Sequence record: PZ386965.1
Length of the DNA: 64,000 bases
DNA from: a phage
Strand: one strand, 5' to 3'
Numbering within the stretch: the stretch's first letter is position 1; every line of letters starts with the position of its first letter. Under the pieces are notes generated by a model. The model worked only from the letters and a program-made list of their open reading frames with translations. It had not been told where the DNA came from and did no database searches. Made by a program: the position numbers and the translations under genes. Positions 1,392-32,799 of the stretch are shown here, in pieces.

Positions 1392-1778
1392 TTATAGATT
1401 CGGTTTATATGATTTAAATGTTTCGAATTCGCCTTTATTCATAAGAGTTTTGAATTCGTCAGGACGCATAGCTTTGTCGTCGATAATCCAATCATATACT
1501 GGTTTATGTGTTAGCAAATTATGGTACTTCAAACCAATGTTTTCCAAGTTCTGAATCAGACTTGGGAGAATGTCAATTGCTATACGACCAGGACCTACTG
1601 ACTTCATACCACGAGCAGTGTAAAGCGTTATGGTATGCCCTGCATCATACAGGGCATTAATGGCAGACACCATTTCGACGTCCGGTTTGAAGTTCACGTA
1701 ATCACGATTGTTATTCCACTCTGTTATACAATCATCGACATCAAAACAAAGATTAAGCATGTTTTCTACACGGTGCAT
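1392..1778 (-). CDS. HAD-superfamily phosphatase-like protein
   Basis: Asp-rich DxD motif near N-terminus (FDVDDCIT); ATG overlaps upstream stop (TAATG); track ORF trimmed to internal ATG. Confidence 0.55.
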   Translation of the reverse strand: MHRVENMLNLCFDVDDCITEWNNNRDYVNFKPDVEMVSAINALYDAGHTITLYTARGMKSVGPGRIAIDILPSLIQNLENIGLKYHNLLTHKPVYDWIIDDKAMRPDEFKTLMNKGEFETFKSYKPNL

Positions 1779-3463
1779 TAGATTCGTTCCCATTGATGAG
1801 TGATATCGCCACCGATTGGACGATAGGAAACACCAGTTTCTTTATCAGTTAGTACCCATTTACCAGGATTTTTTGTAATCAGAGTAGCCATTACAGGTTC
1901 TGCTACGTCATAACTAATAGAGCCATCTTGAAGTACACGACCCATGTTACGTAATTGCTTAGTCAGAAGTTCCATACCTTTATAATATGCGGCTACCGCT
2001 TTAAGTGGATTATTCTTGAAATAACCACCTAATGCAATCCAGATAATTGCTACTGCCAAATGATGATACTCGTTAAACGAACTCATCTTTCCATATTTGT
2101 AAACTAATGGATTGATGTTAATAGTCACATTACAAGTTGTTTCATCAATAGTAAACTGTCCCCAGGTCGGATTAGCATTGAATTCATCATAACCTGAAAC
2201 AGCATAAAGCACTTTAGCTTCATCGTACAATTTTGGCCCGTAAATCTTGGTTTCACCAAAATATCCACGAGGGTCGATAAACTTGACTTCGCCGTTATCA
2301 GTAATCATAGTATTACTGAAGTTCGGGTCACCATGAATAACAGAGTACTGTCCCTGAGAACGGTTATGATAACGAATAAGATGTTCTAAAGCTTGTTTCA
2401 ACATTGGCTTCAGACGTCCAATCTTAGTGTAGTTCACGTGTGTGATTTTACCAAATGAATCAATCAATGGCTGAATGCTTTCACAACGATCAATAACTTT
2501 CGTATAGAACTCTTTAGTGAAATCACGGCGAACAGTTTCAGGACTTACAAAATAAGTGTCCGTGCTGAATTTCAGTGCATCTAAAATTGCATCAACAATT
2601 TGTGGACGAGCAAGACTTGATTTGGATTTAATATATTCAAATGCCGGCTTACCTTTAATACGTTCCATTTCAAAATTATTTTCATTTACCGAAACTAACT
2701 GAGGAACTGAATCTGATTTCACTTTCAAGTACCATGAAATCTCATCTTTTTGAAGAGCTCGACCTTGTTCGGTTAACGCGAATTTAGTTACAGTTTCTTC
2801 GCCAATTTCAACTGCATTAAAACTACGATTAAGTTCACGAACTTCATGAGCTTTTTCAAGTTTAGGCATATCACCTAAATCAATTAGATTCATAAGCTCT
2901 GATTTATTGAATGCACTCCCGTAAAGGAATTCTACAAAATCACGTCCTTTGCAGTATTCGTGAATTTCCTCATCAGTAGAACCCATGTAGAATTCCCAGT
3001 CTTTGAACTGATAAATTCCTACAACATTACCGCCTGTTGAACCTACGTTAGTGATATTTTCACCATCGAAATTATATCGACATTCATCACCCTTAACATA
3101 GATTGCGTTAACATTCCAAGACCATGAACCAAAATCAGGAATAATATCACACCAGTTAACAATTACGTTATGTCCATCTAAATCTTTGTATAATTTAGCA
3201 AGAGCATAAGCAGAACCATACGCTTCATCAACTGTACGAATAGTCACATTGAACCCTTCTTGCTCACAATAAGCTCGAACAGTTTCAGCAAATTTTGAAT
3301 GAACTACTACAATAATTTCATCTGCGCCAAGGTCAGAATAAATTGTATACAAATTGCTCAGAATAGTGTCTTGTTTATAGTTAACAAGCACCTTAGGAAT
3401 ATGATGCGTTATTGGATACAAACGAGTTGCCAGTCCAGCACCAAGAATAACAGCTTTTTTCAT
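1778..3463 (-). CDS. bifunctional sugar-1-phosphate nucleotidyltransferase / sugar kinase (APH-like)
   Basis: N-terminal GxGTRLxPIT-type signature (ILGAGLATRLYPIT) of NDP-sugar pyrophosphorylases; C-terminal HGDxxxxN (HGDPNFSN) and IDPRG kinase motifs. Confidence 0.7.
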   Translation of the reverse strand: MKKAVILGAGLATRLYPITHHIPKVLVNYKQDTILSNLYTIYSDLGADEIIVVVHSKFAETVRAYCEQEGFNVTIRTVDEAYGSAYALAKLYKDLDGHNVIVNWCDIIPDFGSWSWNVNAIYVKGDECRYNFDGENITNVGSTGGNVVGIYQFKDWEFYMGSTDEEIHEYCKGRDFVEFLYGSAFNKSELMNLIDLGDMPKLEKAHEVRELNRSFNAVEIGEETVTKFALTEQGRALQKDEISWYLKVKSDSVPQLVSVNENNFEMERIKGKPAFEYIKSKSSLARPQIVDAILDALKFSTDTYFVSPETVRRDFTKEFYTKVIDRCESIQPLIDSFGKITHVNYTKIGRLKPMLKQALEHLIRYHNRSQGQYSVIHGDPNFSNTMITDNGEVKFIDPRGYFGETKIYGPKLYDEAKVLYAVSGYDEFNANPTWGQFTIDETTCNVTININPLVYKYGKMSSFNEYHHLAVAIIWIALGGYFKNNPLKAVAAYYKGMELLTKQLRNMGRVLQDGSISYDVAEPVMATLITKNPGKWVLTDKETGVSYRPIGGDITHQWERI

Positions 3464-3504
3464 GTTGTGGTCCTCATTGGTAAGTAGGTGTATTGTACAC
3501 TATT

Positions 3505-3615
3505 CTAGTTAAAGCATTCATACTTTGCTTGTAGTCCAATCATAATCCATCCGATTATAAGAGTCGGAATCATTACTGGAGCCGTTAAGCTCCAGTAGAT
3601 AGTCATGACAAGCAT
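3505..3615 (-). CDS. possible small hydrophobic protein (36 aa)
   Basis: Short ORF MLVMTIYWSLTAPVMIPTLIIGWIMIGLQAKYECFN in the intergenic gap; no motif support. Confidence 0.2.
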   Translation of the reverse strand: MLVMTIYWSLTAPVMIPTLIIGWIMIGLQAKYECFN

Positions 3616-3644
3616 CAATAGTAAAAGTCCTATTGTTATTGCTT

Positions 3645-4280
3645 TCATTGCTCGCCTCGTAACATGGCACCTAGTGCACCGCCTGGATGGAACTTAAGGA
3701 AGTCATTAGAGGTAAATCCACGTTCAGACGAAAGGTTGATAGCGAACGTATCGATAAGCGCTAACAACAATGTAGTGGACATTGTCGGAGCTAAAGAGTT
3801 CTCGTCAACTTCTACCGCGATACCGGTACAGAACGTATAATCAAAAAGAGCTTCGTATTCTTGCGGAATGTCCGGGTTACAATGCAACAGAATCTGTTTA
3901 ACCTGAGGACGAATCATACGAAGATGTTTAGCAACACCTATCATTTCTTCAGTTTTACCAGAACGACTAATATGAATCAACACGTCATTAGGCGCAATGA
4001 ATCCTGCATCACCGTGAGAATAATGCCCAGTGTTCAAGTACATACTTGGGATACCGAGTGAAGCAAATGTCTCGGAAGCTTTAGTTGCAATATTAGCATT
4101 CTTACCAACACCTGTAATAATTACTCGGCTTTCATAATTACTAAGACCAGGGCGTCGAAGAGTTTCTAGAATAGCATTATAACGAGCAGGGTTTTGACTA
4201 ATTACTTTAGCCATAGCGGCCAAAGAAGAAGCTTGTTTTATGATTGCGTCAATAGCGATATTAATAGGAGTAGTTTTCAT
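3645..4280 (-). CDS. SIS-domain sugar-phosphate isomerase (arabinose-5-P / heptose isomerase-like)
   Basis: SIS-like phosphosugar-binding region (ITGVGKNANIATKASETFASLGI), ~210 aa typical of single-domain SIS isomerases. Confidence 0.65.
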   Translation of the reverse strand: MKTTPINIAIDAIIKQASSLAAMAKVISQNPARYNAILETLRRPGLSNYESRVIITGVGKNANIATKASETFASLGIPSMYLNTGHYSHGDAGFIAPNDVLIHISRSGKTEEMIGVAKHLRMIRPQVKQILLHCNPDIPQEYEALFDYTFCTGIAVEVDENSLAPTMSTTLLLALIDTFAINLSSERGFTSNDFLKFHPGGALGAMLRGEQ

Positions 4281-25698: not shown

Positions 25699-25738
25699 AA
25701 GATTATACTCTAACCATCCTTGGTTGTAAACTGATTTA
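25699..25738 (-). promoter_or_regulatory. early promoter / stem-loop cassette
   Basis: Minus strand GTTTACA-N17-TATAAT with AACCA..TGGTT hairpin in spacer. Confidence 0.55.
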
Positions 25739-26758: not shown

Positions 26759-27746
26759 TAAGAAGTTTTACTACTTGAATAAGATTAGCTCGTTCTGTTT
26801 TATTTTTACCATTTAAGCCTGCTAATCGTGAGATTTCATCGTCAGTCTGTTGAATAGTTACATTAAGTTCGTTAATCAAAGCTTCAAAGTATTTGATTTG
26901 CTCAGCATGTTTTGATTCAAATTTCTGAACCGGAATAACGTCTTGGTTTAGTTCGTCAATAAGGTCTTTAAGAGCATCTTCTTGGTTGATATCGTATTCA
27001 ACTTCTTTTATTTCTTCAACTAGCTCGTCTTTATATCTAACGTCTTTTAGTCCTGGTGCTGGTCCTGAAATCTCTTCTTTAAGAGTACAAACATACCCAA
27101 TACGGTATCCAGTGCCGTCTCGCTTGATATCAACTTCGTCGATAAATCCACAATGTTTGAGACCAGAGCCGATTAGGTCAAAATATCCTTGACGACGTCC
27201 TTCAAACGTTACACGAACTACTAAGACAGTTTTGCCTGCAATCTTTTGAAGCTCACATTTATAAAAGTCAGTTGAACCTGAATAACGTGGATGAGTTTTA
27301 AAGTTCATCTGACGATCTAGGCCCATTTGTAAACGTGCTGTTACGGCCATAAAACGTGTTTGGTTCTCGTTAAGATGAGCAACAATCCATTTCAAAGGCA
27401 TTTTACACTGTTCACGACCGAACAAATCAGTACGTCCTAGATTACGCAGGATGTTGTTAGAGTTAATCATCGACAGAACGTTAAGTTTATTCAGCGCGCT
27501 GAAGATTCCATCAGCCATTGATTTTCCGTAGCCTTTACACGCTTTAATAAGCGCTCGCGGTAGATTAGTATAGATTTCAGACGGCATATGAAAATCAAAT
27601 TTACTAACCAGTAATTGATGAACTTGGATAGCAATTCGTTCATAATTAAGCGCTCTGCGATCATTATGGTCTTTAAACCACACTTTAATCTGTGAAGCAC
27701 ATAAACCGTTAATTTCATGTTTTATCGCATCAGATGTAATGCTCAT
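26751..27746 (-). CDS. hypothetical 331-aa protein with C-terminal coiled coil
   Basis: Long ORF; acidic then coiled-coil tail. Confidence 0.65.
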   Translation of the reverse strand: MSITSDAIKHEINGLCASQIKVWFKDHNDRRALNYERIAIQVHQLLVSKFDFHMPSEIYTNLPRALIKACKGYGKSMADGIFSALNKLNVLSMINSNNILRNLGRTDLFGREQCKMPLKWIVAHLNENQTRFMAVTARLQMGLDRQMNFKTHPRYSGSTDFYKCELQKIAGKTVLVVRVTFEGRRQGYFDLIGSGLKHCGFIDEVDIKRDGTGYRIGYVCTLKEEISGPAPGLKDVRYKDELVEEIKEVEYDINQEDALKDLIDELNQDVIPVQKFESKHAEQIKYFEALINELNVTIQQTDDEISRLAGLNGKNKTERANLIQVVKLLKE

Positions 27747-27808
27747 AACTATTTCCTCAGATTGAATTGGAACTCAAAACCATTATAACCCGTCCTTGGG
27801 TAAAGCGT

Positions 27809-28336
27809 TTATGCGTGAACCGTCTTTAAACGTTCTTCAAATTTCCGAAGAGTACTAATACGTTCTGCTTTCTGTTTTGTATAGTTTGCAATACGTTCTG
27901 AAGTGAGAGCGTATCGTTCGTTTACTGTTTCTTTCATGAAGTCAGGGATTTCACGAGAAGCTTTAATTTCATCAAACTTGTCGAGTACTGCCTGGTCTTC
28001 AGCGATTAAATTTTCATACATCTCGATATCTTTCTTGATAAACTCGATATCTTCCTGAGTTACTTTGGATAAACGAGATGCTTTATCCTTTTTGTACTGC
28101 TCGTTAGTTTCACGAGACCAGAATAATGTACGTTTTTTGTTAGTGTTTTTGTAGACTTCCACAATTCCAACTGAATCGATGATAACAATCCAATTCCAGC
28201 GAGATTTGAAAATCTGACCTCCATCCACAGTAATCTCGTTACCATAAGCAACGTCATTAAAGAACTTGCTCTGTGCTTCAGATTTAAATTTACCGTCGTT
28301 ATAATTTACCAGGTTGAAAATATCTTTAGCGTTCAT
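27809..28336 (-). CDS. hypothetical protein
   Basis: 175-aa ORF. Confidence 0.55.
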   Translation of the reverse strand: MNAKDIFNLVNYNDGKFKSEAQSKFFNDVAYGNEITVDGGQIFKSRWNWIVIIDSVGIVEVYKNTNKKRTLFWSRETNEQYKKDKASRLSKVTQEDIEFIKKDIEMYENLIAEDQAVLDKFDEIKASREIPDFMKETVNERYALTSERIANYTKQKAERISTLRKFEERLKTVHA

Positions 28337-28350
28337 GTTTTACCTCCAGT

Positions 28351-28398
28351 AGTTGATAGGTCTATAATAACATAACCATAGACCTTGTAAACAACTAA
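28351..28398 (-). promoter_or_regulatory. early promoter / stem-loop cassette
   Basis: GTTTACA -35 and TAGGTCTAT/ATAGACCT palindrome. Confidence 0.5.
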
Positions 28399-28682
28399 AA
28401 GAAACTTTTTTCGGTATTTTTTCCACTGAACCAAACAGACTTCGGGATTTTTTGTAATTTTTCAGATTTAAGTTTCTCTTCCTGTTCTTTCTTATATACA
28501 CTCTTGTCGTACTGGAGCATCTCTATGGCATTCTTTTGCAAATGATCTAAGGTAATTAAGGCTTTAGTTTTTCCTTTCAAGGAAGAGTCCTGGCGAACCT
28601 CCTCGCTATATTGCATTGTAGAACTAACCATACGATGTGCATAGAGTTCGACTGCGGCTTTAATTTTTTGCATAAAATCCAT
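28395..28682 (-). CDS. hypothetical protein
   Basis: 95-aa ORF. Confidence 0.45.
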   Translation of the reverse strand: MDFMQKIKAAVELYAHRMVSSTMQYSEEVRQDSSLKGKTKALITLDHLQKNAIEMLQYDKSVYKKEQEEKLKSEKLQKIPKSVWFSGKNTEKSFF

Positions 28683-28820
28683 AACATATCCTCTTTGATT
28701 TGTACATCATTATTTTTAAATATTTCTATGCCCTCAGTAGGTTCCTGGTGTCCTTCTTTGAGGTAAGCCATATGATTATTCATCTTTATGGCTTTTGTTA
28801 CCTCAGAACTTCCTATAAGC

Positions 28821-29822
28821 TTATTTCAGTAAAGTAACTTCCGAGATTTCTTCCCAACCATCTTTATCAGTTGAAATAAAATCTGCTACATAAAGAGCCG
28901 TACGTAATGATACATTGCGAAGACGAGATACGTTAGCCTTCATCCAGGACAATGCTTTATACGTTTCTGCATCCGTCAGACCACGTTTCTGCATCATGTC
29001 AGTAGATAATATTACATCTTCAACTCGAACCATAATCTCTTCATTAGAGTGTACTCCAAGGTCGAGATACACTGAACGAGATACTAAAGCTTGAAGGTGT
29101 GGAGCAAGTTTCGAACCCCGTTCTAACTCTTTATCGATATCAACGTTTGTAATGAAAACGATAGTACCTTCAAACTCAAATTCTTTATCAATACCCTTAT
29201 CCTCGAGATAAGATGACGCAGTGCTCCAACAAACTTTGCGTTTATCTCCGGTATCTAATGCGGCTTTAAGAAGGTTCAGGATGTCCATATCTGAGAATAC
29301 GTCAACGTCATCGATTAAGAGAACGCTGTCTGCATCACGGTTGAGCCAAAGTTGTTCGTAAAGGCCAATACCAGAGATTTTACCATTAATGCTTTTGTAT
29401 TTGATGAAACCATTATCATTAGCATTACTAAGTGCTTTATCCAGAGAATACGTCTTACCAATACCAGCTGCACCTGAAATAATGAGTGAACGAATTTTGC
29501 CATCGATAATGCCATTCGTCATCATGTTCATTACTTTAAAGCGTTTGTTGATACGAGTTTTCATATCTTCAGTGCTTTCAACAACTGCAACTGGTGATGT
29601 CTCAACTCCTTCCATTACGATGTCTGATTTGAAGACCCATACTCCACGTTCAGAACCATCAATCATAACGAAAATTTTACCGTCACCTAAGTGAGAACAT
29701 TCAGGATTAAGCTTTGCCGGGAACCAGGTCTTTGTGGCAACATAAGAACCAGAGATTTCGTTATTACGATAGATACCTTTTTTGATTTGAACGTTGAACA
29801 TTTTATTCTCCAATTTACTCAT
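28821..29822 (-). CDS. P-loop NTPase (Walker A/B ATPase)
   Basis: Walker A SGAAGIGKT, Walker B VLLIDDVD; 333 aa. Confidence 0.7.
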   Translation of the reverse strand: MSKLENKMFNVQIKKGIYRNNEISGSYVATKTWFPAKLNPECSHLGDGKIFVMIDGSERGVWVFKSDIVMEGVETSPVAVVESTEDMKTRINKRFKVMNMMTNGIIDGKIRSLIISGAAGIGKTYSLDKALSNANDNGFIKYKSINGKISGIGLYEQLWLNRDADSVLLIDDVDVFSDMDILNLLKAALDTGDKRKVCWSTASSYLEDKGIDKEFEFEGTIVFITNVDIDKELERGSKLAPHLQALVSRSVYLDLGVHSNEEIMVRVEDVILSTDMMQKRGLTDAETYKALSWMKANVSRLRNVSLRTALYVADFISTDKDGWEEISEVTLLK

Positions 29823-29889
29823 TTCGTTTCGATAGGTCTATAGTATCATATCCTAAAAGCATGTACACTACTTTTTAAAAATATTTTAA

Positions 29890-29918
29890 CCCCCTAAAGG
29901 GACCCGAAGGTCCCCACA
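29890..29918 (-). terminator. stem-loop with UUCG tetraloop after secreted-protein gene
   Basis: GGGACC-TTCG-GGTCCC hairpin right after stop. Confidence 0.45.
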
Positions 29919-29919
29919 T

Positions 29920-30186
29920 TTACTTATCACACTTAGCAACATAATTAGGCATATCACAGAATACGGAGCGTGTAACTACTCGACCCTTTGACCATGCTTC
30001 AGTTGCTTGTCCGGCCGTGCTATTAATATAGCTTGATTTGATATTCTCAATACCCTGAGAATGTGATGCATTTACCGAACCGTTAGAAGGCGCAGAAGAC
30101 TGGTTACCACCAGCTCCTGTACCTGTGGTAGCACCAACAGAGAATGCCATCATTACTGCGAATAAACCAATTACTAATTTTTTCAT
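29920..30186 (-). CDS. small secreted protein (signal peptide)
   Basis: N-terminal MKKLVIGLFAVMMAFSVGA signal-like segment, Gly/Ser-rich mature part. Confidence 0.6.
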   Translation of the reverse strand: MKKLVIGLFAVMMAFSVGATTGTGAGGNQSSAPSNGSVNASHSQGIENIKSSYINSTAGQATEAWSKGRVVTRSVFCDMPNYVAKCDK

Positions 30187-30217
30187 ATTTACCTCAAGTT
30201 AATGGTTATTTATCTAC

Positions 30218-31207
30218 TTATTTATAGTAAGAATTATGATTTTCGAGATAGACTTGCTCAAGGAAATCATCCCAGAAACTCATATCTACTTTTTGTTGCA
30301 TACCATTCTTGGCAGCTTGTTCTGACGCATGTTCAACTTGGTCAACGATATCTTCTAGGAATTCTTGTACAGTTTTAAACGTATGTTTACCAAGCTTAAC
30401 ATCGAGAATAAATGGAGCATCTTGAAGTGGGTAAACCAGGTCGCCGGTTTTGTAAATTTCCAATAATTGAAGTCCACCACGACATGCATGACTCAATGCT
30501 TTCCAGTCAATACCTTCGTTAGCTTCTGCCTTACGAGCACGTTCACCATAGTTCTCTTCTAGTTTAACCAGGATGGCATTGAACTCTTTATTGGTTAACG
30601 TGTCTTGGAATTTACGGTCTAACAGATTATAGAATGTTTGCTTACCTGTTTTCTCGTTTTCGGTTTCAACCCACGAAGCAAATTCACCTACAGGCAGAAC
30701 ATTCTTCATATGTGATAAACGAATTACTGCACCATTATCAAAGTATTGTCCCCATTCATTAGAACGTTTAAGGGCTTGACGAAGAACAGCCAGTCGAGAA
30801 CCCTTGACACCGTATTTAGAAGCTTGCTTACGGACATACCCTAAATAAGATTTCATGTTAGTGGTATAGAAACGAGACCTGTTATCTTGAATATACTTCC
30901 ATACATCAGGCAAATCAGATTTAACTACTAGACTTGGTGGAGTGTGAAGCATATCTAATGCGACGGTTTCACCATCCGCAGCTAGTTTAAAGAAATATTT
31001 GAGACTATACAACTCATGGTCTACGTCGTCTTTTGTGTTCTTAGAAGATGTGTTATTCGTGTTCTTGCTCATGTGTTCTTTAACGTTACCGGTCAAGATA
31101 TCACGAGCATGAGGGACATAAATTTCTTTAAAATCGACGTCAGATTCAGGAGTAGACGTTCCATAAAGGTGGCTACCAAAGTAGCTTTTCATAATTGTTT
31201 TCATCAT
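30218..31207 (-). CDS. Pol-beta-superfamily nucleotidyltransferase-like protein
   Basis: GS-x11-DxD at N-terminus (YFGSHLYGTSTPESDVDF) typical of minimal nucleotidyltransferases; 329 aa with helical C-terminal domain. Confidence 0.6.
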   Translation of the reverse strand: MMKTIMKSYFGSHLYGTSTPESDVDFKEIYVPHARDILTGNVKEHMSKNTNNTSSKNTKDDVDHELYSLKYFFKLAADGETVALDMLHTPPSLVVKSDLPDVWKYIQDNRSRFYTTNMKSYLGYVRKQASKYGVKGSRLAVLRQALKRSNEWGQYFDNGAVIRLSHMKNVLPVGEFASWVETENEKTGKQTFYNLLDRKFQDTLTNKEFNAILVKLEENYGERARKAEANEGIDWKALSHACRGGLQLLEIYKTGDLVYPLQDAPFILDVKLGKHTFKTVQEFLEDIVDQVEHASEQAAKNGMQQKVDMSFWDDFLEQVYLENHNSYYK

Positions 31208-31677
31208 TTAGCCTTATATTCAAGAGTAGGACAGACTTTTTCTTTACGAGCTTTAAGGTATTCACCTATTAATGATTTCTTACGTTCAATAGGTTCAAGT
31301 CCATTTTTAATTCGTTCTTGGTTTTGCGCAATGAGCTCAATTTCTTTATAATATTTTCTGTCGTTATATTTGTCTAATAACCAAGATGGACCAATTACCG
31401 CCCCGACAGCAATAAGAACCATTACTGATATTGTTAAAATGCCTATACCAATTGAAGCAGGAACTAATGTCCATAAACTACTAAAGACAAAGAATTTAGT
31501 TAAAATTTCTTGGCCAATGATTGCGGCACCTGCTAAAGTTGCAAATCCAACAATTGAAACAGCCAATACCGGAATAAACGTTTTCCAAAAATAAGCACAT
31601 AATGTTTTCGGACGATTCCATGTACTATTGAACGTGGCATAAATTTTAAAGTGCCAAGAGTTTTCATTGATAATCAT
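31204..31677 (-). CDS. membrane protein
   Basis: Two long hydrophobic segments. Confidence 0.55.
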   Translation of the reverse strand: MIINENSWHFKIYATFNSTWNRPKTLCAYFWKTFIPVLAVSIVGFATLAGAAIIGQEILTKFFVFSSLWTLVPASIGIGILTISVMVLIAVGAVIGPSWLLDKYNDRKYYKEIELIAQNQERIKNGLEPIERKKSLIGEYLKARKEKVCPTLEYKAK

Positions 31678-31686
31678 AATAATTCC

Positions 31687-32229
31687 TTATTTCAAAGTCG
31701 GGATAATAGAATCGAGATAAGCTTTAAGAGCAACTGCTTCATCTTTGTCTAATGTAATGATATGTTGACGAAGGTCGTCAATTTGACGAATAACTACAAC
31801 ATCACCGTCTTCATAAGAAGGATTAACGCTCAGGACTGTTGTATAGTCAGGGTTGTCCTGATTTGTAATAAAAGCATTACGACATTTAGCCCATTGAAGT
31901 TTGGCCTTTTTGGCTGTTTCAGATTCCATGAATTCTTTCACTTTAGCGACGAATGTTTTCCAATTATTAATAGAAAAACATTCGTCTTCTGTTTCGATAT
32001 TAACCCCACTATAAAGTCCGTGATAAAAACGAACTTGAAGGTCTTCATCAATGTTAATTACAGATGCATGGCCTGGTGGATTGAGTTTCAAAATCTTGTC
32101 CAGTTCCATAGGAAGAATAGTAACAGCATCATCTTCTTGCGTCAGAACGTAAGCATAACCGCGTTTTTCAATACATAAATCACCAAACAATTCAGTTGTT
32201 TCAATTACAGTTTTCATATTATTCACCAA
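31687..32229 (-). CDS. hypothetical protein
   Basis: 180-aa ORF. Confidence 0.55.
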   Translation of the reverse strand: MVNNMKTVIETTELFGDLCIEKRGYAYVLTQEDDAVTILPMELDKILKLNPPGHASVINIDEDLQVRFYHGLYSGVNIETEDECFSINNWKTFVAKVKEFMESETAKKAKLQWAKCRNAFITNQDNPDYTTVLSVNPSYEDGDVVVIRQIDDLRQHIITLDKDEAVALKAYLDSIIPTLK

Positions 32230-32399
32230 TTAAAGTTTCAACAAAATTCACCAAAGCATTCTGGCAAGCGTCAACCTGATTTTCATAAAAGTCTCCGTTA
32301 TCATTTACCGCATGATAAGCTACATCATTCAAATCTGAATCGGCTTCACGTAAGTCATGGATAAGGTCCATCAATTTATTAGCTTGTTCACGGGTCATT
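32222..32399 (-). CDS. small acidic protein (~59 aa)
   Basis: ORF MTREQANKLMDLIHDLREADSDLN... below track cutoff; coordinates approximate. Confidence 0.3.
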
Positions 32400-32520
32400 T
32401 TACCATACTCGTTTCAATAAGATTCACTATGCCGTTTACCATGTTATAAGTAAACATCGGATAATTGTATTGTACTACAACATAAGCGATAAGCAAAAGT
32501 TTCATTTTGTTCTCCGTTCG

Positions 32521-32566
32521 TTTTGATAGGACTACTATAACATAGTCCTATCAAGTTGTAAACTAC
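32521..32566 (-). promoter_or_regulatory. early promoter / stem-loop cassette (high-identity copy)
   Basis: TTGATAGGACTACTATAACATAGTCCTATC + GTTGTAAAC. Confidence 0.55.
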
Positions 32567-32799
32567 CGATTGTGTTTTAAATGTTGATAAAGTTCTTCAA
32601 CTTGTTTAGGGTCCAAAACAATTAAGTCATTTTCTTGACGAAGATAAATCCATCCCTTATCCCCAGGGCCATTTTTACAAAACATCACCGTCGTCATATC
32701 GTCATCTTCAGCGCTTTCAGGTAAAAGTTCAAGTACACCATCTTCAGATTTTCCAGTATAATCGTAAAGCATAATATCCTCACATAATCTCGTTAACAT
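32563..32799 (-). CDS. hypothetical protein
   Basis: 78-aa ORF. Confidence 0.5.
   Translation of the reverse strand: MLTRLCEDIMLYDYTGKSEDGVLELLPESAEDDDMTTVMFCKNGPGDKGWIYLRQENDLIVLDPKQVEELYQHLKHNR

Follow-up and report, generated by a model that had tools for sequence, protein, structure and literature searches.

Four adjacent genes in the early region of a T4-like phage encode an ATPase, a small secreted protein, a nucleotidyltransferase, and a membrane protein, which raises the question of whether they work as one system. The earlier note on this DNA had proposed that they form an undescribed module with an anti-defence or superinfection-exclusion role. We analyzed the locus within the window, that is, the whole stretch of 64,000 nucleotides, which is DNA of a T4-like coliphage, a Mosigvirus. 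Mosigvirus genomes match the region with 97.8% identity (~98% here for O157 typing phage 3 and JS09), and the region is syntenic with T4 from nrdC.8 to mobD.1. Two of the four genes are already known, namely, T4 nrdC.10 and nrdC.11, a pair whose annotation as an AAA ATPase and a COG3541 nucleotidyltransferase goes back at least to 2006 (PMC1524935). We consider it likely that the region is a part of the variable nrdC-to-tk early region and that its genes are four independent accessory genes belonging to two transcription units, with no functional module.

The four ORFs are all present on the minus strand (Table 1), and the strings that the earlier note had quoted from them, including YFGSHLYGTSTPESDVDF with the GS...DxD motif of the transferase, occur in the translations. 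They are real genes conserved across other phages: a tblastn search found homologues of the ATPase in 1312 phage records, of the transferase in 1543, of the membrane protein in 1137, and of the 88-aa protein in 103 (out of 50,697 records, T4 not being among the 103). Neither NCBIfam nor PADLOC gave a match for any of the four proteins, and an Rfam scan of positions 27500 to 32600 found nothing.

Table 1. Features of the nrdC.10–nrdC.11 locus, in positions of the window
Feature	Coordinates	Strand	Details
Small membrane protein (PHROG 944)	31204..31677	-	157 aa; phrog_944, E=3.5e-52
nrdC.11 orthologue, predicted Pol-beta-type nucleotidyltransferase, RlaP family (PF10127)	30218..31207	-	329 aa; Pfam, PHROG, T4 orthology
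TATAAATA, T4 late-promoter consensus	30219..30226	-	overlaps the end of nrdC.11 (last codons and stop); 88-aa gene begins 33 nt downstream
88-aa secreted protein	29920..30186	-	phrog_2243, E=2.2e-38
Terminator-like hairpin	29888..29915	-	GGGGACC-UUCG-GGUCCCC (29898-29915), -12.9 kcal/mol, weak U-tract
Putative early-type promoter cassette driving nrdC.10	29831..29887	-	GTGTAC-N17-TACTAT at 29840-29868; sequence match
nrdC.10 orthologue, AAA+ ATPase	28821..29801 (ORF to 29822)	-	326 aa from M8; N-terminal five-stranded beta domain
Long hairpin just downstream of nrdC.10 stop	28747..28813	-	-20.8 kcal/mol, z=-3.85, no U-tract

The transferase is assigned by its family match to the RlaP family of the Pol-beta superfamily, in agreement with the Pol-beta-type enzyme first proposed. 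It scored 49.4 bits for PF10127 (cut-off 23, E=6.3e-13) and matched phrog_388 with E=2.6e-126, and it is the orthologue of T4 NrdC.11 (NP_049709), with 78 to 80% identity and the same map position. The Pfam match is confined to the N-terminal half (residues 4–138), and all 39 diverse homologues matched PF10127 and no other family. The invariant residues across these 39 sequences are G11, S12, D23, D25, and D61, with D85 nearly so; the alignment shows the Pol-beta core as a G[GS] loop, a DxD motif, and a third conserved carboxylate. The spacing is GS-x10-DxD, which corrects the GS-x11-DxD given before, and this core with a third invariant aspartate is what the RlaP family shows. The enzyme of Pseudomonas fluorescens, PfRlaP, has three strictly conserved aspartates, and its crystal structure shows a transferase domain at the N-terminus and a helical domain at the C-terminus, with a cleft between them; the phage protein is predicted to have the same order of domains. 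Sequence and profile searches of the PDB with the transferase found no RlaP structure. An AlphaFold2 model reached a pLDDT of 37.7 from an alignment that was shallow because almost all matches in two protein-database searches were at least 98% identical to the query.

The RlaP family was named for its genomic association with RNA ligase and RNA-repair genes, a name reportedly given by Burroughs and Aravind in 2016. No RNA ligase gene adjoins nrdC.11 in this phage. Unlike at the loci that gave the family its name, Rnl1, Pnk, and Rnl2 are far off on the genome, all of them more than 50 kb from nrdC.11 in a 97.8%-identical relative that encodes them. Because only some members of the family have a ligase neighbor, this leaves the assignment to RlaP standing. 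In the Rheinheimera phage Barba19A, the transferase homologue lies one ORF from a CCA-adding tRNA nucleotidyltransferase.

A 2025 preprint placed T4 NrdC.11 in cluster 5 of PF10127 and reported that RlaP enzymes add one or two NMPs to RNA 3'-OH ends, with a preference for mimics of cleaved tRNA (PMC12776372). Only the enzymes of P. fluorescens and P. aeruginosa have been shown to have this addition activity (PMC12776372); unlike them, which belong to cluster 1a, the phage transferase falls in the distant cluster 5. Host anticodon nucleases of the RloC type, which excise a nucleotide, had been believed to defeat phage repair (PMC2610378). NrdC.11 probably helps in tRNA repair as a phage counter-defence: its activity would allow the phage's own polynucleotide kinase and RNA ligases, whose genes lie in other parts of the genome, to rebuild tRNAs that have lost a nucleotide to nucleases such as RloC. 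The basis for this role is family membership together with the one preprint on distant bacterial members of a different sequence cluster, and our survey of the literature found no experiment on any T4-type NrdC.11. The anti-defence role once suggested for the locus is, in this form, plausible for the transferase alone; it does not extend to the four-gene combination.

The ATPase has a true AAA+ fold. Both SGAAGIGKT and VLLIDDVD occur in its translation, as first read, and we located Walker A, Walker B, sensor 1, an arginine finger, and sensor 2 in an alpha-beta-alpha core with a helical lid. The ORF holds, but the length of 333 aa given for its product probably does not: the true start is most likely the second ATG (M8), which is preceded by a GGAG ribosome-binding site common to T4, and relatives are annotated from the equivalent position. 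The protein shares 77 to 78% identity with T4 NrdC.10 (NP_049708) and belongs to PHROG 1250. It matches NrdC.10 in its N-terminal beta domain, AAA+ core and lid, and in having its own early-type promoter, and nothing material differs. Fold searches confirmed AAA+ and singled out no one clade; a PDB sequence search found nothing, and a PDB profile search gave weak matches to RFC4 and Cdc6 only. The Walker A and Walker B motifs are shared with clamp-loader/RFC-type ATPases such as T4 gp44, PHROG searches gave weak clamp-loader matches, and an S-R-S motif aligned with the SRC arginine finger of clamp loaders (profile comparison with gp44 of this phage, E=4e-4, with an hhalign probability of only 35%). 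Unlike clamp loaders, the ATPase has an extra N-terminal beta domain and lacks a collar domain. We suggest that nrdC.10 encodes a stand-alone phage AAA+ ATPase.

The membrane protein is a member of a widespread uncharacterized phage family, which comprises 380 clusters at 50% identity with C27, Y29, K147, and C149 invariant. It carries the motifs NSWHYK...SLCPYFWK at the N-terminal and KxKxCPxLEFK at the C-terminal. A membrane protein had been proposed, correctly, but with two helices; hydropathy shows two hydrophobic stretches (25–58 and 62–103), and because the second could hold two helices, we count two to three transmembrane helices. Sub-threshold Pfam matches of distant family members to Oleosin and LapA were judged spurious.

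The 88-aa protein consists of a Sec-type signal peptide, as noted before, a Gly/Ser linker of varying length, and a conserved C-terminal domain of ~50 aa. In the family alignment, in-frame indels occur in the linker, and C77 and C86 are invariant. Judging from where it occurs, the gene is inserted only sporadically in the slot that follows nrdC.11, and its product would be a small periplasmic protein.

The terminator-like hairpin and the early-type promoter of nrdC.10 both lie between the 88-aa gene and nrdC.10; they exist as the earlier note had described, but because of this position they divide the proposed unit instead of bracketing it. The pair is homologous, as a three-way alignment shows, to the one between nrdC.11 and nrdC.10 in T4, where the hairpin GGGAGCC-TTCG-GGCTCCC, followed by a T-run, stands directly after nrdC.11, and the promoter reads GTTTAC-N18-TACTAT. 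A terminator is annotated at the equivalent site in SA35RD, as is another at the place of the long hairpin behind nrdC.10, for which 0 of 200 shuffles folded as well. All promoter and terminator assignments are sequence matches, and read-through into nrdC.10 is possible since the U-tract of the first hairpin is weak. The first transcription unit would run from the membrane protein gene through nrdC.11 and the 88-aa gene to the hairpin and would reach further upstream, through mobD.1/y05I; the second would begin with the early-type promoter and continue into nrdC.10.

The hairpin and promoter resemble the promoter-early stem-loop (PeSL) cassettes of T4-like phages, in which a stem-loop followed by an early promoter stands between variable ORFs (PMC2839356, PMC4122927). 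The published consensus sequences come from other phage pairs (RB49/phi1, PST, nt-1); the likeness described here is one of arrangement. As with PeSL, the cassette is repeated 1.5 kb away: a second copy of the 57 nt lies at 28355–28411, upstream of nrdC.8, as a direct repeat (D1) with 70% identity, and corresponds to a T4-type early promoter annotated in SA35RD. Also as with PeSL, a sister phage has another ORF in this slot, flanked by two copies of the promoter. Slot genes appear to be gained and lost between such repeated terminator/promoter cassettes. The late-promoter consensus TATAAATA, which precedes the 88-aa gene and carries a late-promoter annotation in SA35RD, could have marked this gene as late. 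We down-weighted that idea because the motif occurs 8 times in the window, where chance predicts 8.3, and because the Y-K-stop codons force the motif, T4 showing TATAAATGA from the same codons; its function is doubtful.

The four genes are inherited independently. Among 79 viral transferase loci, the ATPase lies within 10 kb in 36, the membrane gene is found at 41, and the 88-aa gene is found at one; where the transferase is less than 45% identical, the ATPase is nearby in none of 19 loci. Klebsiella phages account for 286 transferase records versus 149 ATPase records, and Vibrio phages for 59 versus 121.

NrdC.10 and NrdC.11 could act as a pair, with the AAA+ ATPase remodeling damaged RNA or ribonucleoprotein, or delivering it to the RlaP enzyme, during repair. 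The two genes are conserved from T4 to Acinetobacter phages, and nrdC.10 is always downstream in the 36 loci where both occur; this adjacency weighs little because synteny is generally conserved among T4-like phages. Against the pair, the genes lie anywhere from 91 to 2272 nt apart, with unrelated inserts in the gap, they are divided by a terminator and a separate promoter, and 43 of the 79 transferase loci have no ATPase. Outside the T4 family, none of the three ATPase loci examined (121Q, Atu_ph07, and VAP7) has a transferase nearby, and bacterial RlaP is active alone in vitro (PMC12776372). We regard such a partnership as unlikely.

Within the Tevenvirinae, the order of membrane gene, nrdC.11, and nrdC.10 is kept in 29 of 36 loci at 60 to 90% identity, and this conservation, taken with the apparent coupling of the membrane gene to nrdC.11, makes cooperation within that lineage conceivable. 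It is quite improbable, in our estimate, that NrdC.11 of the Tevenvirinae forms a phage-specific RNA-repair or counter-defence machine with NrdC.10, the coupled membrane protein, or both (for example, by remodeling or localizing damaged tRNA), or else that the sporadic 88-aa periplasmic protein acts as a new factor in superinfection exclusion or lysis timing and moves between phages on terminator/promoter cassettes.

The stop of the membrane gene overlaps the start of nrdC.11 (ATGA), from which the two genes are predicted to be translationally coupled, and they are 0 to 3 nt apart in 11 viral loci. A functional pair of the two, such as a membrane-tethered or membrane-regulated transferase, is nevertheless very unlikely: the distance is 356 to 1840 nt in most other loci, 38 of the 79 transferase loci have no membrane homologue, and T4 has nrdC.11 without the membrane gene. 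Members of the membrane family are also present in ICP1 and in a Pseudomonas phage, neither of which gave a match to nrdC.11.

That all four genes make up one co-functional anti-defence or superinfection-exclusion system, we consider highly improbable, even though they are adjacent on the same strand, their mix of ATPase, transferase, membrane, and secreted proteins resembles multi-component conflict systems, and this exact arrangement recurs in at least 152 phage records (covering at least 80% of the region). The 88-aa gene is missing from T4 and from a 98%-identical Mosigvirus, the locus of VR25 carries it without nrdC.10, and the mobD homing endonuclease takes the place of the membrane gene in T4. 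The ATPase and the transferase are found apart in many lineages, the region is split by its internal hairpin and promoter, and the PADLOC defence models match none of the four genes. The notion of an undescribed module is not supported: the genes are inherited separately, a hairpin and an early-type promoter lie inside it, and two of the genes are known from T4. What we found is essentially what the earlier note had named as refuting it, separately regulated, unrelated conserved T4 genes.

Finally, it is scarcely credible that the transferase serves in signalling or as a toxin (as a CD-NTase, an MNT with a HEPN partner, or an AMPylator) and not in RNA-end repair. In favor of this reading are the GS...DxD core, which the transferase shares with all minimal Pol-beta transferases, and a very weak and short match to NTP_transf_2 (17 residues, E=0.12), the sole extra Pfam match at E values up to 10. 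Against it, PF10127 is the only significant family in all 39 homologues; profile comparison with the CD-NTase, MNT, and ANT families, which the earlier note had called for, matched RlaP and none of those; PADLOC gave no match for the transferase; no HEPN or effector gene adjoins it; and the RlaPs characterized so far label RNA but neither protein nor DNA (PMC12776372).

On the preferred reading of independent accessory genes, the region is of little importance in itself, as it consists of catalogued T4-type accessory genes with near-identical copies in more than 100 GenBank records. Both NrdC.10 and the membrane-protein family occur widely among phages. RNA repair was discovered in T4, and if NrdC.11 does restore the nucleotide that RloC-type nucleases excise, a gap in the picture of this repair would be closed.

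The 2857-bp region (28821-31677) shares 97.2 to 97.8% identity over its full length with many Mosigvirus T4-like coliphages, O157 typing phage 3, JS09, APCEc01, and CEV1 among them, and is matched by 770 phage records. All its genes are on the minus strand, and the maps of the annotated relative NC_041863 and of T4 place it in the variable early block that runs from nrdC (thioredoxin) to tk (thymidine kinase). The four ORFs reported in the earlier note, for an ATPase, an 88-aa secreted protein, a nucleotidyltransferase, and a 157-aa membrane protein (31204-31677), were found exactly where it had placed them, and their translations contain the motifs it quoted. PHROG matches and tblastn against phage records show that all four are conserved genes and exclude chance ORFs. 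The ATPase has 77 to 78% identity to T4 nrdC.10 and the transferase 78 to 80% to T4 nrdC.11; both were already on record by 2006, nrdC.10 as an AAA ATPase and nrdC.11 as a nucleotidyltransferase of COG3541 (PMC1524935). T4 differs in lacking the 88-aa gene, with a spacing of only 114 bp between nrdC.11 and nrdC.10, and in carrying the HNH homing endonuclease mobD in place of the membrane protein gene. In viable genome-reduced T4 mutants, nrdC.11-mobD.3 is among the lost fragments (PMC9825161). The observation in the earlier note is largely correct, and the gene set consists of already known, T4-type genes. In many GenBank phage records, the nrdC.10 and nrdC.11 orthologs go under the name "thioredoxin"; Pfam found a thioredoxin domain in neither protein, and the label appears to be an annotation error that spread because of the gene-name prefix nrdC. 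Elsewhere in the window, sugar genes adjoin the DNA polymerase gp43 gene and have 98 to 99.6% identity to their O157 typing phage 3 counterparts; we take them to be probably the sugar-nucleotide genes that underlie the modification of DNA with arabinosyl-hydroxymethylcytosine in RB69-type phages.

Genes, hairpins, and repeats in and around the region
Feature	Position	Strand	Best PHROG (E value)	Phage records (tblastn)	Remarks
ATPase (nrdC.10 ortholog)		minus	phrog_1250 (1.8e-161)	1312	
88-aa protein		minus	phrog_2243 (2.2e-38)	103	
Transferase (nrdC.11 ortholog)		minus	phrog_388 (2.6e-126)	1543	
Membrane protein		minus	phrog_944 (3.5e-52)	1137	
mobD.1/y05I	31687-32229	minus			Next gene upstream of membrane gene; PF24449 + PF24448
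Hairpin	29898-29915				
Promoter-like element	29840-29868				
Second hairpin	28747-28813				Just past nrdC.10 stop; -20.8 kcal/mol, z = -3.85, 0/200 shuffles as stable
57-nt early-promoter cassette	29831-29887 and 28355-28411				Copies 70% identical; upstream of nrdC.10 and nrdC.8
27-nt repeat	25702-25728 and 26722-26748				Copies 96% identical; intergenic, both sides of nrdC.4-like gene
Sugar genes	1395-4229	minus			Arabinose-5-phosphate isomerase (KpsF-like), GlmU-like bifunctional enzyme, phosphoheptose isomerase

The four genes had been read as a candidate undescribed module that could be an anti-defence or superinfection-exclusion system, bracketed by a promoter cassette and a hairpin. 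Both elements are real, but they lie between the 88-aa and ATPase genes, so that the proposed unit is split rather than bracketed. The T4 nrdC.11-nrdC.10 spacer contains a classical terminator (GGGAGCC-TTCG-GGCTCCC) and a T-run, followed by GTTTAC-N18-TACTAT; in the window, a hairpin homologous to that of T4 and then GTGTAC-N17-TACTAT precede nrdC.10. Linkage was examined in 79 viral metagenome or genome loci, each centred on a transferase homolog. The ATPase gene was within 10 kb of the transferase in 36 of them, downstream every time at a gap of 91 to 2272 nt, the membrane gene was present in 41, and the 88-aa gene in one; none of the 19 loci whose transferase was <45% identical contained the ATPase. 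No transferase was found near the ATPase homologs at three loci, those of 121Q (Asteriusvirus), Atu_ph07, and VAP7 (Ackermannviridae), and the genus-level phage record counts for transferase and ATPase from tblastn were discordant. The gene order conserved within the Tevenvirinae is what would be expected of these genomes, in which synteny is generally strong. Tight coupling is indicated only by the membrane gene and nrdC.11, which overlap at ATGA; this overlap is lost in most other genera, with gaps of up to 1840 nt. Because of the internal hairpin and promoter-like element, the weak linkage across the 79 loci, and the ATPase loci without a transferase, the four-gene module reading is not supported; the ATPase, 88-aa, and membrane genes are independent accessory genes.

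The 88-aa protein does possess the signal peptide, which is of the Sec type, and the Gly/Ser-rich stretch ascribed to it, and sequence inspection found no lipobox cysteine. Its Gly/Ser linker changes in length through in-frame indels, whereas the ~50-residue C-terminal domain is conserved, two of its cysteines being invariant. The tblastn matches were essentially from Mosigvirus, plus scattered others; the gene is present in Tequatrovirus F2 and in Gaprivervirus VR25, at a locus without nrdC.10, and absent from a sister Mosigvirus contig of IMG/VR (L012) with a 98% identical transferase. In T4 the hairpin directly follows nrdC.11; here the 88-aa gene separates it from the nrdC.11 stop codon and was therefore inserted into that slot. 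In this part of the sister contig (L012:10985-11400), an unrelated ORF of ~70 aa is located between the hairpin plus promoter and a second promoter copy, directly upstream of nrdC.10, and looks like a cassette-mediated gene replacement in the slot of the 88-aa gene. The late-promoter consensus TATAAATA overlaps the nrdC.11 stop, where a promoter is annotated in phage SA35RD, but this sequence is dictated by the Y-K-stop codons of nrdC.11, and the window has eight copies versus 8.3 expected by chance. In its order of hairpin and promoter, the region is similar to the PeSL terminator/promoter cassettes, to which the shuffling of genes in hyperplastic regions of T4-like phages has been linked (PMC4122927), and the 57-nt and 27-nt repeats are consistent with PeSL-type shuffling cassettes. 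The second hairpin, long and unusually stable, lacks a U-tract; it may end transcription, be cut by an RNase, or stabilise the transcript.

The ATPase ORF is as described, except that its start is probably the second ATG (29801), which has a TTGGAGAATAAAATG ribosome-binding context common to T4, giving 326 rather than 333 aa. Walker A, Walker B (DD), N226, R249, and R307 are invariant in a 74-sequence alignment, and in a confident AlphaFold2 model (pLDDT 89.8) residues 9-71 form an N-terminal beta domain of five strands, which is followed by a linker helix and then by the AAA+ core with its helical lid. In BFVD the family is represented in diverse phages, a Roseobacter siphovirus among them. 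In some phages (SHFML-11, T6, RB7), a homing-endonuclease gene interrupts or adjoins nrdC.10, which in Shigella phage SHFML-11 is in two pieces (165 and 152 aa); nrdC.10 is therefore a homing target, like the T4 nrdC.11/mobD.1 junction. The membrane protein, previously called two-helix, has two hydrophobic stretches (25-58 and 62-103), which implies two or three helices. Its family, large and uncharacterised, comprises 380 clusters at 50% identity and is found in T4-like phages, Vibrio phage ICP1, and a Pseudomonas phage; Pfam scans that included distant members assigned it to no Pfam family. An N-terminal NSWHYK...SLCPYFWK motif and a C-terminal KxKxCPxLEFK motif, both termed cytoplasmic, flank variable transmembrane helices, and C27, Y29, K147, and C149 are invariant.

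The transferase is a member of the known RlaP family, T4 NrdC.11. PF10127 ("RlaP, RNA repair pathway DNA polymerase beta family") was its sole significant Pfam match (49.4 bits versus a cut-off of 23) and the only family matched by 39 of 39 diverse viral homologs (28-80% identity). Relaxing Pfam to E = 10 added one other transferase family, NTP_transf_2, over 17 residues (E = 0.12), and the PADLOC defence models gave no match; the suggested kinship with CD-NTase, MNT, or ANT families was not borne out by this profile comparison. The proposed GS...DxD signature is present with a spacing of x10, not x11, and G11, S12, D23, D25, and D61 are invariant among homologs, D85 nearly so. The structure model (pLDDT 37.7) was built on an alignment too shallow for fold comparison, and a PDB sequence search found no RlaP chain.

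Two Pseudomonas RlaPs, characterised in a December 2025 preprint, extend RNA 3'-OH ends by one or two NMPs, prefer cleaved-tRNA mimics, and do not use DNA or protein as substrates; three aspartates are strictly conserved in their N-terminal transferase domain, and the C-terminal domain is helical (PMC12776372). Its authors explicitly assigned T4 NrdC.11 to PF10127, cluster 5, and proposed that, before ligation takes place, RlaP replaces nucleotides taken by RloC and other "smart" ribotoxins (PMC12776372). The 3'-OH ends made by RlaP are exactly those that T4-type ligases require. According to an earlier comparative study, RlaP and RNA ligases have matching distributions in jumbo phages (PMC7824862), and genes for RNA ligase 1, polynucleotide kinase, and RNA ligase 2 are present at other places in the genome of a near-identical relative of the present phage. 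In Rheinheimera phage Barba19A, which is not T4-like, the gene of a CCA-adding tRNA nucleotidyltransferase is followed, one ORF further downstream, by the RlaP homolog (28% identity; L005:5247-7900), and this independently hints at tRNA ends as the site of action of the family. On the basis of the PF10127 matches, the preprint, the ligase and kinase genes, and the CCA-adding neighbour, we assign the transferase to RlaP and consider tRNA-repair counter-defence a plausible role for it.
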